This document shows, in pieces, positions 3,174-24,660 of a DNA stretch of 26,122 bases. The first letter of the stretch is position 1, and each line of letters opens with the position of its first letter. The translations under genes and the position numbers were made by a program. Source of the DNA: Pseudomonadota bacterium (GTDB lineage: Bacteria; Pseudomonadota; Alphaproteobacteria; Caulobacterales; Hyphomonadaceae). Where the stretch lies: NCBI GenBank assembly GCA_039034035.1, contig JBCCBN010000023.1, forward strand, positions 1-26,122, in the 5' to 3' direction. Below the pieces are notes generated by a model, which was not told the origin of the DNA, searched no databases, and saw only the letters and a program-made list of their open reading frames with translations.

Positions 3174-3507
3174 CGGGTGTTCTCCAGATAACAGATCCAA
3201 CGGCCTAGCCGATGCGGTTGCCCTTCGCCAAGCGGCAAAGAGAGAACCAGGTCCGCCTCAATCGAACGCCTGCGGGCCATCCGGCATCCACGGACGGGCA
3301 GCGGGGCCTTTCGACGATGCGTCGCCAGCCTTGGCCAACGCGGCACCGCGCCGGTTCCCCACCAGCCGACCATCTCCGCCAGCGGCACAAGGCCGGCGCT
3401 CAATTTGCCGCTCGATGCTGCCCGCTCCCGAAGGATTGGACCGCACCGTCGGCTGAGGGGACCCGGCCTCCCCGATCATTGGACGAGGTTTCTTTCGAAG
3501 ACCTCGG

Positions 3508-3580
3508 GAGTTGCTGAAGGAATCGAACCTTCTACCGTCAGATTAAGAGTCTGATGCTCTACCAGATGAGCTAAGCAACA
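3508..3580 (-). tRNA. tRNA-Lys (anticodon CUU)
   Basis: The reverse complement folds as a cloverleaf. D-arm GCTC/ATCTGGTA/GAGC. Anticodon stem TCAGA/TCTGA with loop CTCTTAA, so positions 34-36 are CTT. Variable loop CGGTA. T-arm GAAGG/TTCGATT/CCTTC. Acceptor TGTTGCT/AGCAACT has 6 base pairs plus a T:T mismatch at 1:72. Discriminator C. No CCA is encoded; the gene is followed by CCG. Confidence 0.8.
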
Positions 3581-14396: not shown

Positions 14397-14578
14397 ATGC
14401 CCGACTTCCCTCCAATACTGCCGAACGGACGCTAGACGGCCCCGGTGGAAAATGAAACAATCCTTTCACATTCGGAACACCGCCGCCTCGAAGGAGGGCA
14501 CTGCTTGACCGCCGGCTCACCCGCCCGCCTGGAAGGACTTCCTGGCGTTGACGCGAAACGATGCGGAGGACTGGTAGA

Positions 14579-14983
14579 ATGAGTATCGAGCGTGACCTGA
14601 GGGGTCACCACCCGGAAGATGACGCGATTGGCCTGAATGAGGGCCTTTTGCCGGAGGACCTTCAAGGGCTCACCACCGACGACATTGCCGGCATACTGGC
14701 CTCGACCGAGACGCTTGAGGCGCGCCATCAGCGCCTGGTGTCGATCCGTGACCAGCTTGAGACGCTGAGCCACACAGGCGGCGAAGATGTCGACGGCGCC
14801 GGTGCAGTCGGGACGCTGATAAGCGCCGTGGAGGGCGCGCTGCAGCGGCTTGAACATGGGCGGAGCCATCCAGGCGGGCGGTATGGCGCGGGGCTCGACC
14901 CGGACGGCAGGGCCGATACCCAATCGCCTGACGATTTGCTGGCTGATGATTGGCGCTTGTCGGTGGATCCGACCCATCTCTAG
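14579..14983 (+). CDS. hypothetical acidic protein
   Basis: Start at ATG 14579 (MSIERDL...), with a GGAGGA RBS 6 nt upstream. The Asp/Glu-rich sequence has no recognisable domain. The overlapping minus-strand ORF 14432..15097 is Arg-rich and was judged a shadow. Confidence 0.4.
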   Translation: MSIERDLRGHHPEDDAIGLNEGLLPEDLQGLTTDDIAGILASTETLEARHQRLVSIRDQLETLSHTGGEDVDGAGAVGTLISAVEGALQRLEHGRSHPGGRYGAGLDPDGRADTQSPDDLLADDWRLSVDPTHL

Positions 14984-15130
14984 GATGGGGTGGGCGCGGA
15001 GGTGAACCGGGCGACGCCGAATTGTGCCTGATCGTGGCCGCCTGTTCGGCGCCTGGGCATCTGAACGCTTTCGTCCCGGGCCCTCCTCTCGCGGCATCGT
15101 CGCGTCGTAGCGAAGATGCCGCCGGCTGGA

Positions 15131-15628
15131 TCAGTAGCTGTTCTTGATGAACATGACCTTCCGGATGATCGACACGGTCTCGTCTTCGAGGCCCATATAA
15201 TCAGAGATTTTCTTCAGAAAGGCTTCTTCGCTATCGCGGAACTTCCGGTCGGCCAGGACGATGTCCATGCAATGGGTATAGACCGACATGCGCATGTCGC
15301 GGGGGAGCACCCGGCAGGCCTCCTTGATAGAGCCTTCCCGGTCGGCCTTCACGCGATCGATCACGGTCTGGTTGACCTGCGCCAGGCGCTCGGGGGTAAG
15401 CCGCTTCATGGTTCGGCAGCGCCGGACAAGGGCGGCGATTTCCTGTCGCTCTTCGGCGGCCATTTCGCCGTCGGCAAAAGCGGCTTCCAGGACCAGGCAC
15501 AAGAACGCTTCCGGCATGCTCCAATCGGAGTCGCTGTCGTCGAACATCCGCTCCGCTTCGTCCAGATCGGGGAGTTCGTTGGGTTCAGGGTCACCCGCGG
15601 GGAAAAGGATCCTCATTTCGGTCGTCAT
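15131..15628 (-). CDS. TerB-like (tellurite-resistance TerB family) domain protein
   Basis: 165 aa, all-helical. FLCLVLEAAFADGEMAAEERQEIAAL...ACRVLPRDMRMSVYTHCMDIVLADRKFRDSEEAFLKKISDYMGL matches the TerB pattern (aDG.v...E ... and a second half with D/E). GGGAG RBS. Confidence 0.6.
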   Translation of the reverse strand: MTTEMRILFPAGDPEPNELPDLDEAERMFDDSDSDWSMPEAFLCLVLEAAFADGEMAAEERQEIAALVRRCRTMKRLTPERLAQVNQTVIDRVKADREGSIKEACRVLPRDMRMSVYTHCMDIVLADRKFRDSEEAFLKKISDYMGLEDETVSIIRKVMFIKNSY

Positions 15629-15755: not shown

Positions 15756-16361
15756 CTAACAATTCTCAGGATCCGTACATGGGCGCGGCTGGGGACCCGC
15801 ACGGCGCGCTAGGCTATCACGTTGCCGTTGCAACGCTGCCAAGTGATTTCGGAGACTGGTCTGCGCTGTGCCAAGCTCGAGGATGAGCGTTTCGCGATTC
15901 CAATCAGGGGTTTCTGGCGGGGTAGCGTCCCGTTGCGAGATCGAAGCCCCTCGAGAGCGGCGTTCGCGCACCACATCCGCGATTTCGGCCTTCTTCGCTT
16001 CGATATCCTGTTCGAGCCCTTCAATCTCGGCGACGCCGCGTGAGATTTCGCCGAGCCCGGCAAGCTGGTCGACCAATCGGTCGCGTTCGTCGGTGATGCG
16101 CTCCAACTCTCTGACTTCGGCCTCAAGCCGGATCTTGTCCTGTTCGAGGCTGCTGACATTCCCCGACAAGAAGAACCATGTGGCGCCGGCTGCGAGGGCG
16201 GCAACCAGCAGGGAGAGCAAGATGGCGGATGCAGTCGAAAGGCCCACGCGCTTATACTCTATTTCGGCTTCGTGTGAGGGGTGGGGAAACAGGGTTCGGG
16301 CTTCAACCACCATGGGCGGCGGCCTGTCCTGGGGATCTACGTCGTAATCACTGGACGCCAT
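15756..16361 (-). CDS. hypothetical membrane-anchored coiled-coil protein
   Basis: 201 aa. Pro-rich N-terminus, one TM helix (ILLSLLVAALAAGATWFFL), then heptad-like LEQDKIRLEAEVRELERITDERDRLVDQLAGL...IEGLEQDIEAKKAEIADVVRERR. Strong GGAGGG RBS. Confidence 0.6.
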   Translation of the reverse strand: MASSDYDVDPQDRPPPMVVEARTLFPHPSHEAEIEYKRVGLSTASAILLSLLVAALAAGATWFFLSGNVSSLEQDKIRLEAEVRELERITDERDRLVDQLAGLGEISRGVAEIEGLEQDIEAKKAEIADVVRERRSRGASISQRDATPPETPDWNRETLILELGTAQTSLRNHLAALQRQRDSLARRAGPQPRPCTDPENC

Positions 16362-16425: not shown

Positions 16426-18525
16426 CTACGGCGTGCACAGGCGCGCGCTGTAAGTATTGAGGAAATTCTGAACATCGCGATAGTCCCGGCCATCGTCGGG
16501 GAGATTGAAATCGTAGTCGCCATTGCAGGCCAGCGAGGCTTCCTTGAGGTAGATGAGGATTTTCTCGGTGCCGACGGGTGGCAGGGTTTCGGCGCGGGGC
16601 CAGTCAAAATCGGTCACATCCTCATCGGTCACCGTACTGAGGGCGAAGTCGAGATTACTCCGCGCAATCTGGCGGGCGGCGCGCGCACCGGAAACGCTGA
16701 GCCGCTGGGCCCGGCGCATCTGGAACATTGCCTGTAGGAGGAGTTCGTCGGGGGATGTGCCGAGGGAGCATCGCGGCTCATCGCTGTCATTCGTCCAGCG
16801 CCCCCCGGCACGGATGCGCGCAAGGCAGGCGATTCGGGTGTAGCTCTCATCAGAGCGGCGGAGGTCAGCAGCCCGGTCGGCGTTCTCTACCGCGGTGGAA
16901 AACCGGTTTGAGAGCGCATTCACGGAGCTGAGCAGACTATAGGCCTCGGCCTGAAACGTGGGCGCATCAACAAAGGTCTGGGTGGCGTTTGAGCCTGTCA
17001 GCGCTGCAAGCGTGGCCGCCGCCGCGGTCTCATCGCCATGCTTGAACTGATGGCCGGCAAGTTTGAGCACGGGCTTGGCGGACCGGGGCGTTTCGGCGCG
17101 GGCGGCAAGGAGGATGTCGCGCACCTCATCGGGGTTGCGGCCGGCCGCATCGGCTGCGCTGGCCTGACGTAACAGAGCGTCCGATAGTGCGTTGGGCGAC
17201 GCTTCTGGATCGGCTCTCAACTGAGCCACGGCTTGGTTGAACTTGTCGGCCGCGCAGGCCCAATCCCGCTTGCGCTCGCAGGCGCTGGCCCAGCCGAGCA
17301 GGTCTTCCGCTTCACCGGAGAGGCTGGCGGCTTGCTCATAATCGAGTAGCGCCCGGTCGAACGGATCGAGGCCACCCGTGATGTCACGCGCGTCGCCAAT
17401 GCTGGCGAGGGCTTCCCATGTGCCGGCGCGTCCTCGGAAGGCTGCGGCCTGGGCTAGCGGTTCTGTGTCGGCAGCGAGGGCGCGGGAGAAATACTCTTCG
17501 GCCTGGCGCAGGAGAGCCGCATCCTCATCGTCGGTTCCGAGCCGGAGATGGGCATTGCCAAGGCCGGAAAGCGCACGGGCGCTTTGGCGGTTTGCCGCGA
17601 GCGCGCGGGTATAAAGCTGGATCGCGCCGCGCTCGTTCCCGTCTTCGGCGAGCGCGGTGTCGGCCAGCTCTACAGCATAGCTTTCCAGCCGCTCACGGGC
17701 ATCAGCCTTGAGTGGTCCATTGATCGGGCTGTTGACCACGGTTTCATACGCATCAATGGCATCCTGACCATCGAGCGCTCCATCTCGAGCGCGGTGGAGA
17801 TCGCCGAGCAGCAGATGGAAACGGTCATATTGTTCACCGCGGGTTCCGTCTTCTAGGCGCGCATAGGGCTGGGCGACCTGTCGGTCCTGGCTCATTCGGT
17901 CGATTGCGAGGCTAAGGCAGGTCTCTCGGCGGGTGCAGGTGGCGCGGCGAGGGTCGAGGCGGGCAGTCTCGACCGTCTCGGAAAGGGACGTCAAGGCTGT
18001 GGCATAGGCAAGGACGCGGTCGAGGCGAAAGGCCTGGGTCTGAGCCGTCCACGCGCGGATCGCTCGCTCGCGTTCGGCCTCACTCCGCACGGTCCGGAGG
18101 GTCTCGGGCACCGTATTCAGCCAGCCATCGGTGTTCTGGAGGTTGTCGAATGAGGCGCGCAGCAAGGCGACCGATGCCTGCAGGGGTTCAATGGAGGGCT
18201 GGCCGCTGCTCATGGACGCGGCGTCAAGATAAGCGCGGCCGGCATGGTAGTAGGCGACGCCGCGCTCCCTGACGCGCAAGTTTGTATCATTGTCTGCCAC
18301 GCTTTCACAGCGCCGGGCCAGATCGAGCGCGTCGGCAGCGCCTGACGCACGCGGAGCGGCGAGGTCGATACAACTTGCGCTAGCGGTGGATATGGGTGCT
18401 GGACCGGGTGTGGGCGCTGTCGTCGTGGTCTCGCATGCGGCCAGCGAAACCAGGGAAATTGCTGCAAACACCCGTGAAAGGAACGACCTGTCCATGGTCA
18501 AAGCTACACTCCCCGAACGCGCCAT
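16426..18525 (-). CDS. hypothetical TPR-like helical-repeat lipoprotein
   Basis: 699 aa. Lipoprotein signal with lipobox (…FAAISLVSLAAC/ETTTT) when read from the internal start MDRSFLS (18495). The remainder is Ala/Leu/Arg-rich helical-repeat sequence with several TPR-like A-x-x-x-Y/L-A spacings and multiple Cys. No catalytic motif recognised. Confidence 0.65.
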   Translation of the reverse strand: MARSGSVALTMDRSFLSRVFAAISLVSLAACETTTTAPTPGPAPISTASASCIDLAAPRASGAADALDLARRCESVADNDTNLRVRERGVAYYHAGRAYLDAASMSSGQPSIEPLQASVALLRASFDNLQNTDGWLNTVPETLRTVRSEAERERAIRAWTAQTQAFRLDRVLAYATALTSLSETVETARLDPRRATCTRRETCLSLAIDRMSQDRQVAQPYARLEDGTRGEQYDRFHLLLGDLHRARDGALDGQDAIDAYETVVNSPINGPLKADARERLESYAVELADTALAEDGNERGAIQLYTRALAANRQSARALSGLGNAHLRLGTDDEDAALLRQAEEYFSRALAADTEPLAQAAAFRGRAGTWEALASIGDARDITGGLDPFDRALLDYEQAASLSGEAEDLLGWASACERKRDWACAADKFNQAVAQLRADPEASPNALSDALLRQASAADAAGRNPDEVRDILLAARAETPRSAKPVLKLAGHQFKHGDETAAAATLAALTGSNATQTFVDAPTFQAEAYSLLSSVNALSNRFSTAVENADRAADLRRSDESYTRIACLARIRAGGRWTNDSDEPRCSLGTSPDELLLQAMFQMRRAQRLSVSGARAARQIARSNLDFALSTVTDEDVTDFDWPRAETLPPVGTEKILIYLKEASLACNGDYDFNLPDDGRDYRDVQNFLNTYSARLCTP

Positions 18526-18861
18526 GAGGCGCCGATGAATAAACAGGTTAATGCCTGTTAAGTAAAGTCAGCGCGTTGAACGAAGATTATCCAATCGCGT
18601 CAAGGCGATTTCGACGCGGTGAGACGCGAACAGATGCAGACTTGTCACACTTTTCGGCCCCTGCCCGAAGCCGGCGCAGGACGGTAGCTGAGGGGTGTGA
18701 ATGCGGGTGTGTCGCTTCGGTTGTTGCACGTGAACTGCATGGCAATCGATGTGCAATCATTGAAAAGCGATATGTAGCTCTCCATCTGCGCGATATTGGC
18801 AAGCGGGCCTCGTCCAACCTGCCAGCGACTTGGACGAGTGTCAGACTGAAAAGGAAAATCC

Positions 18862-19056
18862 ATGCAACCCACTGCACGTGAAGCTGCCTTGGCCGAAATT
18901 GCCGCCAGCCTGAATTCGGACGCCCCTGACCCTTATGAAAAGATCCTGTTCGGGCACTTGGAAGAGAGCGTCACCGAACCGGCGCGTGAACCCGCTGGTA
19001 ACCCGGTCGTCGGCGAGCGCCGGACAGCGGTGCCTGGTGATCGAGAAGCGACTTGA
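18862..19056 (+). CDS. hypothetical small protein (64 aa)
   Basis: ATG preceded by an aaaaggaaaatcc RBS-like purine tract. Third-position GC bias is coding-like. The acidic sequence MQPTAREAALAEIAASLNSDAPDPYEKILFGHLEES... has no known domain. Convergent on the 485-aa gene. Confidence 0.3.
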   Translation: MQPTAREAALAEIAASLNSDAPDPYEKILFGHLEESVTEPAREPAGNPVVGERRTAVPGDREAT

Positions 19057-19062
19057 GGCGAC

Positions 19063-20520
19063 CTAGGTGCAATTGGGGGTGAAGTCGGGGTGCTCTGATT
19101 GCAGGAGGGCGGCGGCCAACTCGTAGTGGGGCGGTTTGAGCAGCTTGCGGATCTCGCACATGTTGAACTCGTCGGCCTGGAACAGCGCCACATTGCGGCG
19201 GGCGTCTTCAGCCGCGCCGGCGACGCCAATCTCGCGGGCCACAAAAGCGCGCACCAGTTCGTTCCAGGCGAATAGACCGGTCCGCTCGACCGCCTCGGCA
19301 TTGGCAAAGGCGCCGCTGAAGTCATCATCAAGGAGATAGGCGAAGCTGATATTCTCGCCCGACCCGCTCACCTGGTTCTCGGTTTGCTGGAGTTGGCGGC
19401 GCAAGTCGATGGCCCGCTGCAGGCAGGCGTGCATGAGGCGTGTGCGATCAGAACCATAGGTGATTTCGCCCGTGGGACAGGCATCGCGCGCCAAGTCGTG
19501 GGCGGAGTTGACCGACTGGTATCCGCCCGCATCGGCGGCGATCAGGACCGTTCCAAGACCGTGGAAGGCATTCATCTCAAGGGTGAGCAGGGCCTCCCTA
19601 CGGGCCGCACTTCCGCCGGCATCATCGGTGGATACCGCTTCGCTGCGTTGAACGGCCAGGCTGTAGTTCCGGAGCGCTTCTTCCACCAGCCCCTGTTTTC
19701 GAGCGCATTGTCCGCGCCAGTAAAGCTGCTGGGGGCCAAGCGTCTCTAGTGCGCCGATGGCGTCGGTGGCAGCGAAAAGGGCGTCACAGTCTTCAAGCGC
19801 ATAGTTGGACCGAGGTGAGGAGGCATTCTCGAACGCGATCCAGGCCAGCCCGGTCTTGGCGATACCGGCGAGACCGGGCGCCGACTGAACGGACGTGAAG
19901 GCGTCCTGGGCCTCGCGGAGGGTTTGGGGCAGACCGGTTGCACCACGAGGAATTTCGTCTCCGCCGCGCTCCCATTCCATCAAGAGGAGGACGCCATTGA
20001 ACAGCGCGGTCTGGGATGCAGTTGCGGTGGTCCCGGTTGGATCAGCCGCCTCGATACTCTGTTCGAGCCTTTGTTCGCTGGCAAGGGATCGGACACCGCG
20101 CTCGAGGAAGTCGATAGAGGCTTCGAGGCCGCTATCGATCGATACGGACTGGTCGCCGACCTGAGTGATGGAGAGCATTTCGGCATAGTTGCGGCGGATC
20201 GAGGCTTCCTGCCCGGCAATCCGGTTACTGAGATCGGAGGCGAGGATCCGGGTTTCGAAAGCGCGGCGTTCGAGACGCTCGGAATCCTCGGCCAGGGTCT
20301 GGGCGACGAAGTAATAATAAGCGCCCAAGGCCGCGGACATGGCGACGACGAGGAACAACGCGCTGAACCCAGCTACGAGAATGCCGCGCATGCCGCGTTG
20401 CTCAGCGGCGACCAGGGCAATGAGTTCTGAATCTTCTTTTTCCGTCACTGCGGCCCCTCTCAACCGACAACCGATCCGATCATATCCATCCAGATGCTCC
20501 GCTTGGACTTGCTGGCGCAT
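19063..20520 (-). CDS. hypothetical membrane-anchored protein (N-terminal signal-anchor plus ~440-aa soluble domain)
   Basis: 485 aa. One TM (GILVAGFSALFLVVAMSAALGAYYYFVAQ) follows a short basic N-terminal tail. The remainder is helical and Ala/Leu-rich with 5 Cys. An alternative start is ATG 20391. It overlaps the upstream 2-TM gene by 61 nt if read from 20520. Confidence 0.6.
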   Translation of the reverse strand: MRQQVQAEHLDGYDRIGCRLRGAAVTEKEDSELIALVAAEQRGMRGILVAGFSALFLVVAMSAALGAYYYFVAQTLAEDSERLERRAFETRILASDLSNRIAGQEASIRRNYAEMLSITQVGDQSVSIDSGLEASIDFLERGVRSLASEQRLEQSIEAADPTGTTATASQTALFNGVLLLMEWERGGDEIPRGATGLPQTLREAQDAFTSVQSAPGLAGIAKTGLAWIAFENASSPRSNYALEDCDALFAATDAIGALETLGPQQLYWRGQCARKQGLVEEALRNYSLAVQRSEAVSTDDAGGSAARREALLTLEMNAFHGLGTVLIAADAGGYQSVNSAHDLARDACPTGEITYGSDRTRLMHACLQRAIDLRRQLQQTENQVSGSGENISFAYLLDDDFSGAFANAEAVERTGLFAWNELVRAFVAREIGVAGAAEDARRNVALFQADEFNMCEIRKLLKPPHYELAAALLQSEHPDFTPNCT

Positions 20521-20936
20521 TGCAGCTGGCTGACGAAGCCGGCAAACAGCTTCATCCGGCCCGCCCGCGCCGCATAGAGCGATCGGTCGATGGAATTGAC
20601 GCAGTTATGGGCAGCGCACCAACTGGCGAAGAAGCCGACCATTGCTGCGGAAATCGGGGCCAGGATCTGCATCAGCGTGAGCCAGATACCGCTCGATCCA
20701 CCGCCGGACGAATTGGCGAACAAGTACGCAATTGTGGCCATGGCGCCGAGCAGGAGCACGAAACTGAAGACGAACAATCCAAAGCAGATCGAGCGGATCC
20801 GGCAATGGTGCCGTTTCTCGTTCTCGAGGATGTTCGCAAGAACGTCCACGTCACCCGTTTCGATTGATGATTCGATCATCTGGGATGTCCCGCGTGCCAG
20901 CGTTGCGACGTTAGTGGCAGACCCATCGGCGCGCAA
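20460..20936 (-). CDS. hypothetical small inner-membrane protein (2 TM helices)
   Basis: 158 aa. TM1 CFGLFVFSFVLLLGAMATIAYLF. A Gly/Ser linker. TM2 LTLMQILAPISAAMVGFFASWCAA. Start is ambiguous: TTG at 20936 or ATG at 20879 (MIESSIE). Local GC (~57%) is lower than the surrounding genes. Confidence 0.5.
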   Translation of the reverse strand: MRADGSATNVATLARGTSQMIESSIETGDVDVLANILENEKRHHCRIRSICFGLFVFSFVLLLGAMATIAYLFANSSGGGSSGIWLTLMQILAPISAAMVGFFASWCAAHNCVNSIDRSLYAARAGRMKLFAGFVSQLQCASKSKRSIWMDMIGSVVG

Positions 20937-21047: not shown

Positions 21048-22460
21048 ATGGACCCGACCTCGCCCGCCCCTACCCCCGCGTCCTCGTCGCCTCGCGAAAC
21101 CGCGCCGCTAAGCCGGTTACGGACGCTGGCACTGGCCTGGCCGATCGTGCTGGCGCAGGCCGCGACGGCGACCACCAGCACGGTCGATACGCTGGTCATG
21201 GGCCGATATGGCAGCGCAGAGGCGCTGGGCGCGGTTGGGGTCGCGTCGGTGGCAACGCTGTTCCTGTTCTGGGCGTTCGGCTTCCTGCGGATGGCGACGA
21301 CTGGGCTGGCAGCCCAGGCCGATGGCGCCGGCGATGAGGGTGAGGTTGGGGCGGTCCTGATTAGGGGGTTGTTGCTGGGCGCGGGGCTTGGCGTAACCAT
21401 CATCATCGTGTTCCCGATCTTTCGCTGGGGCGCATTGGCCGCGTTCGCGGCGGACCCGGCGGTCGAGACCCTTGCGAGGGGATATTTCAATGCCCGGATC
21501 TGGGGAGCGCCGGCCGCGCTGATGGGGTATGCAGTGACCGGATGGCTGATCGGGACCGGGCGGACGCGCAGCCTGCTTGCTTTTCAAGTCGTGTTGAACG
21601 CGGTCAATGCGGGCCTGGATGTATGGTTTGTAGCGGGGCTGGACCTGGGTCCGGCGGGGATCGGTGCAGGGACGGCGATTGCGGAGTGGGTGGCGCTGGC
21701 CTTCGGGCTGGCGCTGGTGCGGACGTCGCTGCGGCGGACTGAAGGCCTGTTCGACAGGGCCAGGCTGATGGCCCTGTTTGCGGCCAATCGGGACATCATG
21801 ATCCGCACGCTCGCCTTGCTGTTCGCTTTTGCATGGTTTGTGAACGCAGGCGCCCGGGTCGGAACCGCTGCGCTCGCGGGCAATGAGGTGTTGCGCCAGT
21901 TCGTGACGGTGATGGCGTTCGTGCTGGACGCGTTTGCGTTTGTCGCCGAGAAGGAAGCGGGAGCGGCGTATGGTGCGCGCGACCGGGAACGGTTCCTGCG
22001 GGCTGTGCGGATCACTAGCGAGCTGTCCTTTGCGTTCGCATTGGGTTTCAGCGCGCTCTTCCTACTGCTTGGCGGGCCTGTGATCGAAGCGGTGGTGAGC
22101 GATGCTGACGCTCGTGCGGCGGCACTGACCTATGTGCCGGCTATGGCCGCGGTGCCGCTGGTGGGTTGGATGGCCTACCAGTTGGACGGCATCTTCATTG
22201 GCGCAACGCGCGGGCATGCCTTGCGGAATGCGGGCGTGGCGGCGACGGTGCTGTATGTGGCCACCGATAGCCTGCTGCGCCCGGCATTTGGCAATTGGGG
22301 GGTCTGGGCGGCATTCCTGGCTATGTTTGCCTATCGGGCCGGCGGGTTGCTGGTCTACTGGCCTGGATTATTGGCGGATGTCAGCGAAGATCAGCGCCCA
22401 CCGCCGCCGCCACCGTCTCGAAGCCGTCAGAGCGGAGCGCGCCAGCCAGTTCGAGATTGA
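21048..22460 (+). CDS. MATE-family efflux transporter (DinF/NorM-like)
   Basis: 470 aa with ~12 TM segments. LALAWPIVLAQAATATTSTVDTLVMGRYGSAEALGAVGVAS opens repeat unit 1. ALAGNEVLRQFVTVMAFVLDAFAFVAEKEAGAAYGAR opens repeat unit 2. The last ~30 residues (…EDQRPPPPPPSRSR…) look non-native and overlap pyrD on the other strand. Confidence 0.8.
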   Translation: MDPTSPAPTPASSSPRETAPLSRLRTLALAWPIVLAQAATATTSTVDTLVMGRYGSAEALGAVGVASVATLFLFWAFGFLRMATTGLAAQADGAGDEGEVGAVLIRGLLLGAGLGVTIIIVFPIFRWGALAAFAADPAVETLARGYFNARIWGAPAALMGYAVTGWLIGTGRTRSLLAFQVVLNAVNAGLDVWFVAGLDLGPAGIGAGTAIAEWVALAFGLALVRTSLRRTEGLFDRARLMALFAANRDIMIRTLALLFAFAWFVNAGARVGTAALAGNEVLRQFVTVMAFVLDAFAFVAEKEAGAAYGARDRERFLRAVRITSELSFAFALGFSALFLLLGGPVIEAVVSDADARAAALTYVPAMAAVPLVGWMAYQLDGIFIGATRGHALRNAGVAATVLYVATDSLLRPAFGNWGVWAAFLAMFAYRAGGLLVYWPGLLADVSEDQRPPPPPPSRSRQSGARQPVRD

Positions 22461-24039: not shown

Positions 24040-24660
24040 ATGCGCCATGATGACATATGGAGAGGCATAGATGCCCTCGCCGCCGCGCATGGCATGTCCG
24101 CATCGGCCTTGGCGCGCAAGGCTGGACTGGACGCCACTGCGTTCAATCCGTCAAAACGGTTCAGCAGTGGCGGTCGGCCCCGCTGGCCCTCGACCGAAAG
24201 CGTCGGCCGGGCGCTCGAAGCGGTCGATGCATCGTTGGGGGACCTTGCTAATCTGATCGCGAACAAGCCGGACGGAAGCCGGATACCGATCATTGGTTTT
24301 GCTGAGGCGGGTCGGGACGGTTTCTTCGACGCAAAAGGGCTGCCGACCGGGCGGGCCTGGTCGCAGGTCACCCTGCCGGCCGGCACCGATGATGCGCTGT
24401 ATGCGTTGGAAGTTTCTGGCACCTCGATGTTACCAACTTTTCGTCCAGGTGACCGCCTTATCGTTGCGCCGAAAGCAGATGTTTCACCCGGTGACCGGAT
24501 TGTCTTGCGGACCAGTGATGGAGAGGTCATGGCCAAGGAGTTGGTTGAGCGGAGAAAGGGGCTGGTTTCGGTCCGTTCCTTGAACCCGGACTTTTCGCCT
24601 CGCTCGGTGCCTGAATCGGAGATAACATGGCTGGCGCGCATTCAATGGGTAAGCCAGTAA
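24040..24660 (+). CDS. CI/LexA-like transcriptional repressor (N-terminal HTH plus C-terminal S24 peptidase domain)
   Basis: 206 aa. HTH: MSASALARKAGLDATAFNPSKR. S24 domain with Ser nucleophile in ALEVSGTSMLPTFRPGDRLIV and the downstream Lys region ...DGEVMAKELVERRKG.... GAGGAGG RBS. Confidence 0.7.
   Translation: MRHDDIWRGIDALAAAHGMSASALARKAGLDATAFNPSKRFSSGGRPRWPSTESVGRALEAVDASLGDLANLIANKPDGSRIPIIGFAEAGRDGFFDAKGLPTGRAWSQVTLPAGTDDALYALEVSGTSMLPTFRPGDRLIVAPKADVSPGDRIVLRTSDGEVMAKELVERRKGLVSVRSLNPDFSPRSVPESEITWLARIQWVSQ

Follow-up and report, generated by a model that had tools for sequence, protein, structure and literature searches.

A conserved gene pair encoding two membrane-anchored proteins, linked to a TerB gene cluster in Caulobacterales

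The 26,122-nucleotide stretch of DNA analyzed here, hereafter called the window (contig JBCCBN010000023.1 of a member of the Hyphomonadaceae), carries between positions 19063 and 20936 two adjacent genes, D and E, for which no protein family model exists in Pfam, NCBIfam, or PADLOC. We found that both are real open reading frames (ORFs) of the minus strand, that they form a conserved pair, and that they usually lie beside three further genes, A, B, and C, the last of which encodes a TerB protein. We propose that D-E and A-B-C may form the two modules of an enzyme-free trans-envelope scaffold or sensor, a reading to which we assign a probability of roughly one half. Its parts deserve separate grades: it is quite likely that D and E act as one unit, and somewhat better than even that D-E is functionally coupled to A-B-C.

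An earlier note, made from the sequence alone, had placed two minus-strand ORFs in this interval, encoding 158 and 485 amino acids (aa), which either overlapped by 61 nt or lay 68 nt apart depending on the start chosen for the longer one. Both genes exist at these positions, and the arithmetic holds for the two starts that were considered (ATG 20520 for the overlap and ATG 20391 for the gap), but gene E begins at neither codon, and 158 aa overstates the length of the small gene product. The proteins deposited in the database for this contig (locus tags AAF253_04215 to _04240) are 139 aa for D and 461 aa for E, and the features of the pair are as follows.

20460 to 20879, minus strand: gene D, 139 aa, start ATG 20879, stop TGA 20462-20460.
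20454 to 20459, minus strand: Shine-Dalgarno sequence GAGGGG of gene E, 5 nt before GTG 20448.
19063 to 20448, minus strand: gene E, 461 aa, start GTG 20448, stop 19065-19063.

The alignment of D homologues (32 clusters, 137 to 148 aa) begins at ATG 20879, and that of E homologues (95 clusters, mostly 447 to 497 aa) at GTG 20448. ATG 20391 is excluded as the start of E because residues L9, L12, E16, Q17, R18, and R21 of the 461-aa protein, all of them invariant or nearly so, are encoded upstream of it. ATG 20520 is disfavored, since the homologue alignments span residues 25 to 485 of the 485-aa ORF (95%) and the segment preceding the GTG falls outside them. Both the overlap of 61 nt and the gap of 68 nt thus result from wrong E starts. 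With the corrected starts, the stop of D and the GTG of E are separated by 11 nt, a gap that contains GAGGGG; the same gap measures a median of 15 nt in 39 relatives (range, 4 to 115 nt). Such a junction is compatible with translational coupling, and D and E are probably cotranscribed and translationally coupled. Construct design for either gene depends on these starts.

Only its small size and its lack of annotation could suggest that the gene for the two-helix protein, D, is a chance ORF. This explanation is refuted and retains practically no probability, as D is intact in 40 of 42 loci, its copies show 41 to 78% amino-acid identity, 24 of its alignment columns are invariant, and its G+C content at third codon positions (GC3, 0.757) is typical of the genome. 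Conservation among the five genes decreases in the order D, E, C, A, and B, with D homologues being 41 to 76% and E homologues 36 to 58% identical to the window proteins; D and E are the best conserved of the five, which indicates that both are under selection. The composition of the interval is native as well. It had been described as visibly lower in G+C (about 57 to 60%), which did not hold up: the interval has 61.7%, against 62.7% for the window, which ranks it at the 33rd percentile among windows of equal length and about 0.6 standard deviations under the mean. D alone is low in G+C (57.4%), with a GC3 like that of its neighbors, and GC3 across the D/E interval (0.73 to 0.76) is similar to that of the flanking genes. 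There is no compositional anomaly.

We then examined the genomic neighborhood of the pair. When one genome per species was scanned with the E alignment, 41 loci were recovered, whereas a scan with a single sequence had found nothing. The E-seeded loci were typed with hidden Markov models (HMMs) of the families, and all-against-all clustering was performed over 42 loci. All but one of the 41 loci are labeled Caulobacterales (Hyphomonas, Henriciella, Terricaulis, Maricaulaceae, and metagenome-assembled genomes of Hyphomonadaceae) or are labeled at the class or phylum level only. The remaining locus (L029, CAMEDD010000079.1) is assigned to "Candidatus Sulfopaludibacter" (Acidobacteriota); all five genes are present in it, in the order A-B-C-D-E and similar to those of Hyphomonas, and the contig was probably mis-binned. 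In 39 of the 41 loci, E is directly preceded by D; of the other two, one is cut by the edge of its contig and one has a truncated E. In the window, the three partner genes share the strand of E and follow closely after it.

16426 to 18495, minus strand: gene A, 689 aa, annotated start at M11, predicted exported helical protein resembling tetratricopeptide repeat (TPR) proteins.
15756 to 16361, minus strand: gene B, 201 aa, predicted bitopic membrane protein with a transmembrane (TM) segment at about residues 47-65.
15131 to 15628, minus strand: gene C, 165 aa, cytoplasmic TerB protein, annotated by NCBI as "tellurite resistance TerB family protein."

D-E is located beside A-B-C in about 33 of the 42 E-seeded loci, and the two units are arranged in at least four ways. 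Fifteen loci show A-B-C-D-E. H. johnsonii and several marine metagenome contigs have D-E directly downstream of genes for a protein of about 700 aa, a protein of about 205 aa, and a TerB protein. The order seen in the window, (C-)D-E-A-B-C(-C), occurs in 9 loci, a convergent arrangement (D-E><C-B-A) in 3, and a divergent one (<C-B-A D-E>) in 2, while 2 or 3 loci have D-E with an adjacent TerB gene only. Clustering raised the number of loci with A to 33 of 42 and revealed no sixth conserved family over the same loci; the flanking genes are wholly different from one locus to another. D-E and A-B-C are therefore the two units of rearrangement, and the proposal that the pair belongs with the adjacent cluster, in a larger uncharacterized envelope system of two units, is supported by the co-occurrence of all five homologues. 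A reciprocal scan of metagenome contigs, seeded with the TerB subfamily, found D/E adjacent in 23 of 38 decidable loci.

Some loci depart from these patterns. One clade (L019, L020, L024, L026, L031, and L089) has three TerB paralogues in the order C-D-E-A-B-C-C, one of them directly upstream of D. E is split in three loci (L045, 10001-11363; L046, 9992-11375; and L047, 3399-4234) and A in one (L003, 4082-6294), in each case into two adjacent ORFs, reflecting either frameshifts from sequencing or assembly errors or pseudogenes. In L007, a 706-aa gene upstream of the pair was considered as an A homologue and rejected, being similar in size but unrelated.

The same neighborhoods bear on the alternative that D-E and A-B-C are independent systems whose proximity reflects only their common descent in one order. 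On that view, D-E would stand by itself, as a periplasmic TPR adaptor anchored in the membrane and accompanied by a small partner of its own. Linkage is indeed not obligatory, as D-E stands alone within 10 kb on either side in about 8 of 41 genomes (L017, L022, L030, L036, L039, L044, L045, and L046), and A-B-C lacks D-E nearby in 15 of the 38 decidable TerB-seeded loci. These 15 loci offer at least 2.5 kb (mostly 6 to 10 kb) of sequence on either side, 40 further loci being too short to decide, and no substitute partner family was found in them. In addition, 567 nt separate the two modules in the window. However, the adjacency persists in at least four orders or orientations despite wholly different flanks, which synteny inertia does not predict. 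The additional TerB gene directly upstream of D in one clade and the lack of any other conserved gene family in these neighborhoods also speak against independence. The two modules are thus kept together far more often than synteny drift would explain, and we consider their independence rather unlikely. Since A-B-C can stand alone, D-E looks like an accessory module.

D is predicted to begin with an amphipathic cytoplasmic helix, followed by TM helices at about residues 31-55 and 66-90 that are joined by a short periplasmic loop, and to end with a basic cytoplasmic helix. Counts of lysine plus arginine agree with the positive-inside rule, with 3.8 and 3.5 in the terminal flanks versus 0.7 in the loop. 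Hydropathy and these counts uphold the topology previously proposed for the pair, i.e., two hydrophobic segments in D and a single N-terminal TM segment in E. Across the 32 homologue clusters, mean column identity is 68%; H25, R29, C32, W87, C93, and C121 are among the invariant residues, C26 is nearly invariant, and C93 and C121 are retained even in the remotest relatives. D is accordingly predicted to be a hairpin with both termini in the cytoplasm and with invariant cytoplasmic cysteines. Its AlphaFold2 (AF2) model comprises three helices, with a predicted local distance difference test score (pLDDT) of 75.

A profile search of 1.84 billion representative sequences returned 30 matches to D with an E value of 0.001 or less, 20 of them at 1e-10 or less, and 25 of the 30 were 129 to 151 aa long. 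One library representative (P0145, 645 aa) is a multipass membrane protein whose last 100 residues or so resemble D, which makes it either a true fusion or a chimera of assembly or gene calling. Pfam searches with D and its 32 relatives identified no family and gave only scattered chance matches to transmembrane models, and neither NCBIfam nor PADLOC holds a family for D. Sequence searches of the PDB with D and E gave nothing below an E value of 0.02. All matches in the fold search with D were either long helical bundles of a generic kind or BAR-like folds, and we did not take the BAR resemblance as homology.

E is predicted to start with a conserved cytoplasmic segment of 21 aa, followed by a TM helix at about residues 22-48 that runs on as a continuous helix, or stalk, to residue 97. 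Beyond the stalk, the AF2 model (pLDDT 94; predicted template modeling score, 0.87) shows an all-alpha TPR-like superhelix. This modeled domain has the right-handed superhelix of paired antiparallel helices that defines the TPR type, although fold searches returned only generic TPR matches, among which the eukaryotic Pins/LGN protein outscored bacterial TPR scaffolds. At the sequence level, the Pfam models TPR_1/TPR_2 scored 18.3 bits on the window protein, below the gathering score of 27, and one TPR motif (residues 241-268) was detected in 30 of 57 family members at an E value of 0.01 or less. Pfam, NCBIfam, and PADLOC otherwise contain no family for E; the description of both proteins as unrecognizable was thus accurate, save for this one subthreshold motif. 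E and A are both TPR-like, and paralogy between them was considered and rejected: a BLASTP comparison of the 485-aa and 699-aa ORFs gave E values of 5 or more, and hhalign gave the family alignments a probability of 5%.

The location of the TPR domain of E can be approached from its charges and its cysteines. Lysine plus arginine counts are 3.05 before the TM helix versus 1.56 after it. The conserved cysteines of E (221, 248, 324, 342, 431, and 460) include no CxxC, and in 55 of 57 family members the cysteines number exactly six, every one located after the TM segment and at a conserved position. Flank charge and the six-cysteine pattern together suggest that the TPR domain is periplasmic, where three disulfides would be expected. 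A conserved polar patch is formed by R250, K251, H296, E365, N366, W395, and E397.

Gene A evolves fast, with about 28% identity over the full length to a 694-aa protein of H. johnsonii (E value, 7e-31), and a word-index homologue search with A recovered only A itself, the protein being either too fast-evolving or too simple in composition for this kind of search. A is predicted to be exported throughout its family, by a lipobox in the window (LAAC) and in several clades and by a signal peptidase I-type signal in Hyphomonas. It has several conserved cysteine pairs, one of them at the extreme C terminus, and gave only subthreshold TPR matches in Pfam and NCBIfam. B is predicted to place its N terminus, which holds the conserved motif VxExRTLFP, in the cytoplasm and to form a coiled coil in the periplasm, and it ends in CxxxxxC (cysteines 195 and 201). 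In architecture, it is like the Hyphomonas B protein. The window protein matched the B family HMM with 236.8 bits, the window B itself being one of the five seeds of that HMM, while a pairwise BLAST comparison with Hyphomonas B retained only a 25-aa N-terminal motif (E value, 0.004). Generic coiled-coil matches were all that NCBIfam and PADLOC returned for B. Conserved cysteines at or near the C terminus are common to A, B, and E, which, along with the signal or lipobox of A, fits a shared oxidizing compartment.

C belongs to the TerB family PF05099, with 45.3 bits against a cutoff of 24.4 over residues 41-155 (profile positions 3 to 116 of 118), and is 49% identical to the TerB protein of the Hyphomonas cluster (tblastn E value, 5e-46). 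C is highly conserved and has no TM segment, no signal peptide, and no fused J domain. The earlier note, in which this ORF (15131-15628) had gone unnamed, counted five consecutive envelope-targeted unknowns; the five linked genes are there, but the fifth is this member of a recognized family, which carries neither a TM segment nor a signal peptide. The first D-G...E motif of the window protein is intact (ADGEMAAEE), and the second reads ADRKF...E versus ADGxL...E in relatives (G128R). A 221-aa ORF at 14432-15097, rich in arginine and proline, unannotated, and without a Pfam match, was rejected as a member of the cluster, in which the TerB ORF is the third gene. A J-domain gene directly follows C only in the two clades nearest to the window (L009, 11569-12057; L011, 1603-2001), and we searched downstream of the window TerB gene for a remnant of it and detected none. 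Scans of A to E against Pfam, NCBIfam, and PADLOC revealed no catalytic, ATPase, or nucleic-acid-binding domain.

Given that TerB is the only recognized domain, we considered whether the cluster is an accessory system of the Ter/TerB type that protects against phages or stress. In such a system, a sensor spanning the envelope would perceive an attacking phage or a damaged membrane, and its output would act on the membrane or induce dormancy. TerB domains are found both in defense systems and in the Ter operon of stress response and phage inhibition, surveys of defense systems were among the literature matches, "stress-sensing ... and phage defense" is among the roles speculated for TerB (PMC11709261), and the distribution of the cluster looks patchy, in varied chromosomal contexts. 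However, PADLOC-DB v2 gave no match for D, E, or C (TerB having been searched only via an overlapping ORF) and only weak, nonspecific matches for A and B (PDC-S28, E value of 0.011; JetC coiled coil, E value of 2e-4), and the domain searches detected no nuclease, ATPase, helicase, protease, or pore-forming domain. In addition, a plasmid collection searched with E and a phage collection searched with D contained no copies, no mobile-element genes were found in the window, the composition is native, and the divergence of D and E roughly follows taxonomy. A defense role is therefore improbable in our judgment.

The proposed trans-envelope scaffold or sensor could be assembled as follows. D-E would be an accessory inner-membrane module, A-B-C would be the other module, and the inner membrane would be spanned by B, D, and E. 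The cytoplasmic extensions of D may pack into an elongated three-helix bundle bearing the invariant cysteines, a possible metal or redox-sensitive element. The TM helix of E would continue as a periplasmic stalk of about 50 residues, holding a disulfide-stabilized TPR superhelix off the membrane. In the periplasm, E and A might bind each other or an envelope ligand through their TPR surfaces, and TerB might dock on short conserved cytoplasmic segments of B, D, and E as a cytoplasmic output or anchor. Besides the loci in which either module stands alone, several observations weigh against this model. TPR and coiled-coil folds point to no specific function, and the orientation of E depends largely on the cysteine argument, as the charge bias across its TM helix is moderate. 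The window TerB protein deviates at the near-invariant positions F117Y, G128R, and L130F. Finally, most named Hyphomonas species apparently lack the family, judging from the match lists, which is easier to reconcile with an accessory function than with a core one in the envelope.

A more far-reaching reading, which we hold only tentatively and regard as doubtful, is that the five genes constitute a previously undescribed enzyme-free trans-envelope apparatus restricted to Caulobacterales (Hyphomonadaceae, Maricaulaceae, and Terricaulis), in which cytoplasmic TerB would be coupled, via three small membrane proteins, to two periplasmic TPR proteins with disulfide bonds. One of the three would carry a cytoplasmic bundle containing cysteines. 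TerB is widespread in Ter operons, DjlA, and defense systems, and its molecular role is undefined. If such an apparatus exists, it would provide a concrete structural context for a domain without a defined biochemical role and could represent a new envelope-state sensor or an element of lineage-specific envelope architecture. The cluster is compact, and all TerB partners in it are membrane or periplasmic scaffolds, making it a small, tractable setting in which the binding partners of TerB at the membrane could be sought. With D and E come two further families that Pfam, NCBIfam, and PADLOC do not model, that of D being extremely narrow. The significance of the cluster is limited by its narrow taxonomic range, a small group of stalked bacteria from marine habitats.

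The sequence between the two modules and the wider flanks were also inspected. A shared intergenic control region had been suggested for two operons; both modules lie on the same strand, which makes this region a tandem spacer rather than a divergent control region.

18496 to 19062, no strand: E-A spacer, 567 nt, with a promoter-like site, a hairpin, and an orphan ORF.
18862 to 19056, plus strand: orphan 64-aa ORF AAF253_04230, convergent with E, a singleton among about 15 billion proteins.
18614 to 18586, minus strand: weak sigma-70-like site upstream of A, 9 of 12 matches.

The orphan ORF has no Pfam or NCBIfam match and is unlikely to be a gene. The spacer contains no credible terminator, as the hairpin after E is no more stable than shuffled sequence (z = -0.79), and no inverted repeats were found there. 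Upstream of D, neither CtrA boxes nor any shared motif was found in 40 loci. On the other side of the cluster, the 734 nt between the TerB gene and nupC (14397-15130) contain no credible gene. The sole Rfam or ARAGORN match in the window is a tRNA-Lys (CTT) at 3506-3580 on the minus strand, with no integrase or mobile-element genes beside it. A DinF-type MATE transporter gene (21048-22460, plus strand; NCBIfam DinF, 234 bits, below the cutoff) lies 1.6 kb from a gene for an S24 peptidase resembling LexA (24040-24660, plus strand), with pyrD and a DUF952 gene on the other strand between them. This proximity recalls the lexA-dinF pairing of E. coli.

One of the closest known systems is the LapA(YciS)/LapB(YciM) pair, which regulates envelope lipid synthesis. 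In both cases, a small gene for a protein with two TM helices immediately precedes a gene for an N-terminally anchored TPR protein without an enzymatic domain, and, by analogy, the role of D-E might likewise be that of an envelope-linked regulatory scaffold. We therefore weighed whether D-E is a functional analogue of LapA/LapB, or of a periplasmic TPR chaperone of the CcmI type. The operon logic is the same, the polar patch of E resembles the groove used by TPR chaperones, and there is a weak match to the LapB model, although it comes from A rather than E (18.9 bits, far under the cutoff of 363). Nevertheless, no sequence relationship to LapA/LapB was detected: E matches neither LapB nor CcmI in NCBIfam, and D and its 32 relatives have no LapA/DUF1049 or other Pfam match. 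E has six conserved cysteines and lacks the C-terminal rubredoxin-type zinc site of LapB with its two CxxC pairs, its TPR domain is predicted to be periplasmic whereas that of LapB is cytoplasmic, and no ccm or lpx genes are near any locus. Such an analogy is thus very unlikely to be the explanation. The structural matches of E to PilF/PilW, NlpI, CpoB/YbgF, and CcmI are generic to all TPR proteins, with no family-level sequence match, and the examined neighborhoods contain no pilus, Tol-Pal, or ccm genes.

The remaining comparisons concern TerB. The literature searched contained no description of the A, B, D, and E families alongside TerB, nor anything relevant on TerB in Hyphomonas or Caulobacter or in connection with TPR or periplasmic proteins. 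Shango combines TerB with an ATPase and a helicase; the window cluster differs in having no ATPase or helicase genes beside it, as well as no sixth conserved family. E. coli DjlA carries a TM segment, a TerB-like domain, and a J domain in one polypeptide. The J-domain gene after C in the two closest clades provides the DjlA domain set as separate genes, whereas C itself has neither the TM segment nor the J domain. TerB-like domains such as that of DjlA have been described as membrane-proximal modules of unknown role (PMC11709261). The Ter operon (terZABCDE) resembles the present cluster in that C is a true PF05099 TerB protein and the system is centered on the membrane, but no TerC, TerD, TerZ, or TerA was present among the principal ORFs of the window or in the gene lists of related loci. 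We regard the D-E pair as a new form of the membrane modules that are associated with TerB.

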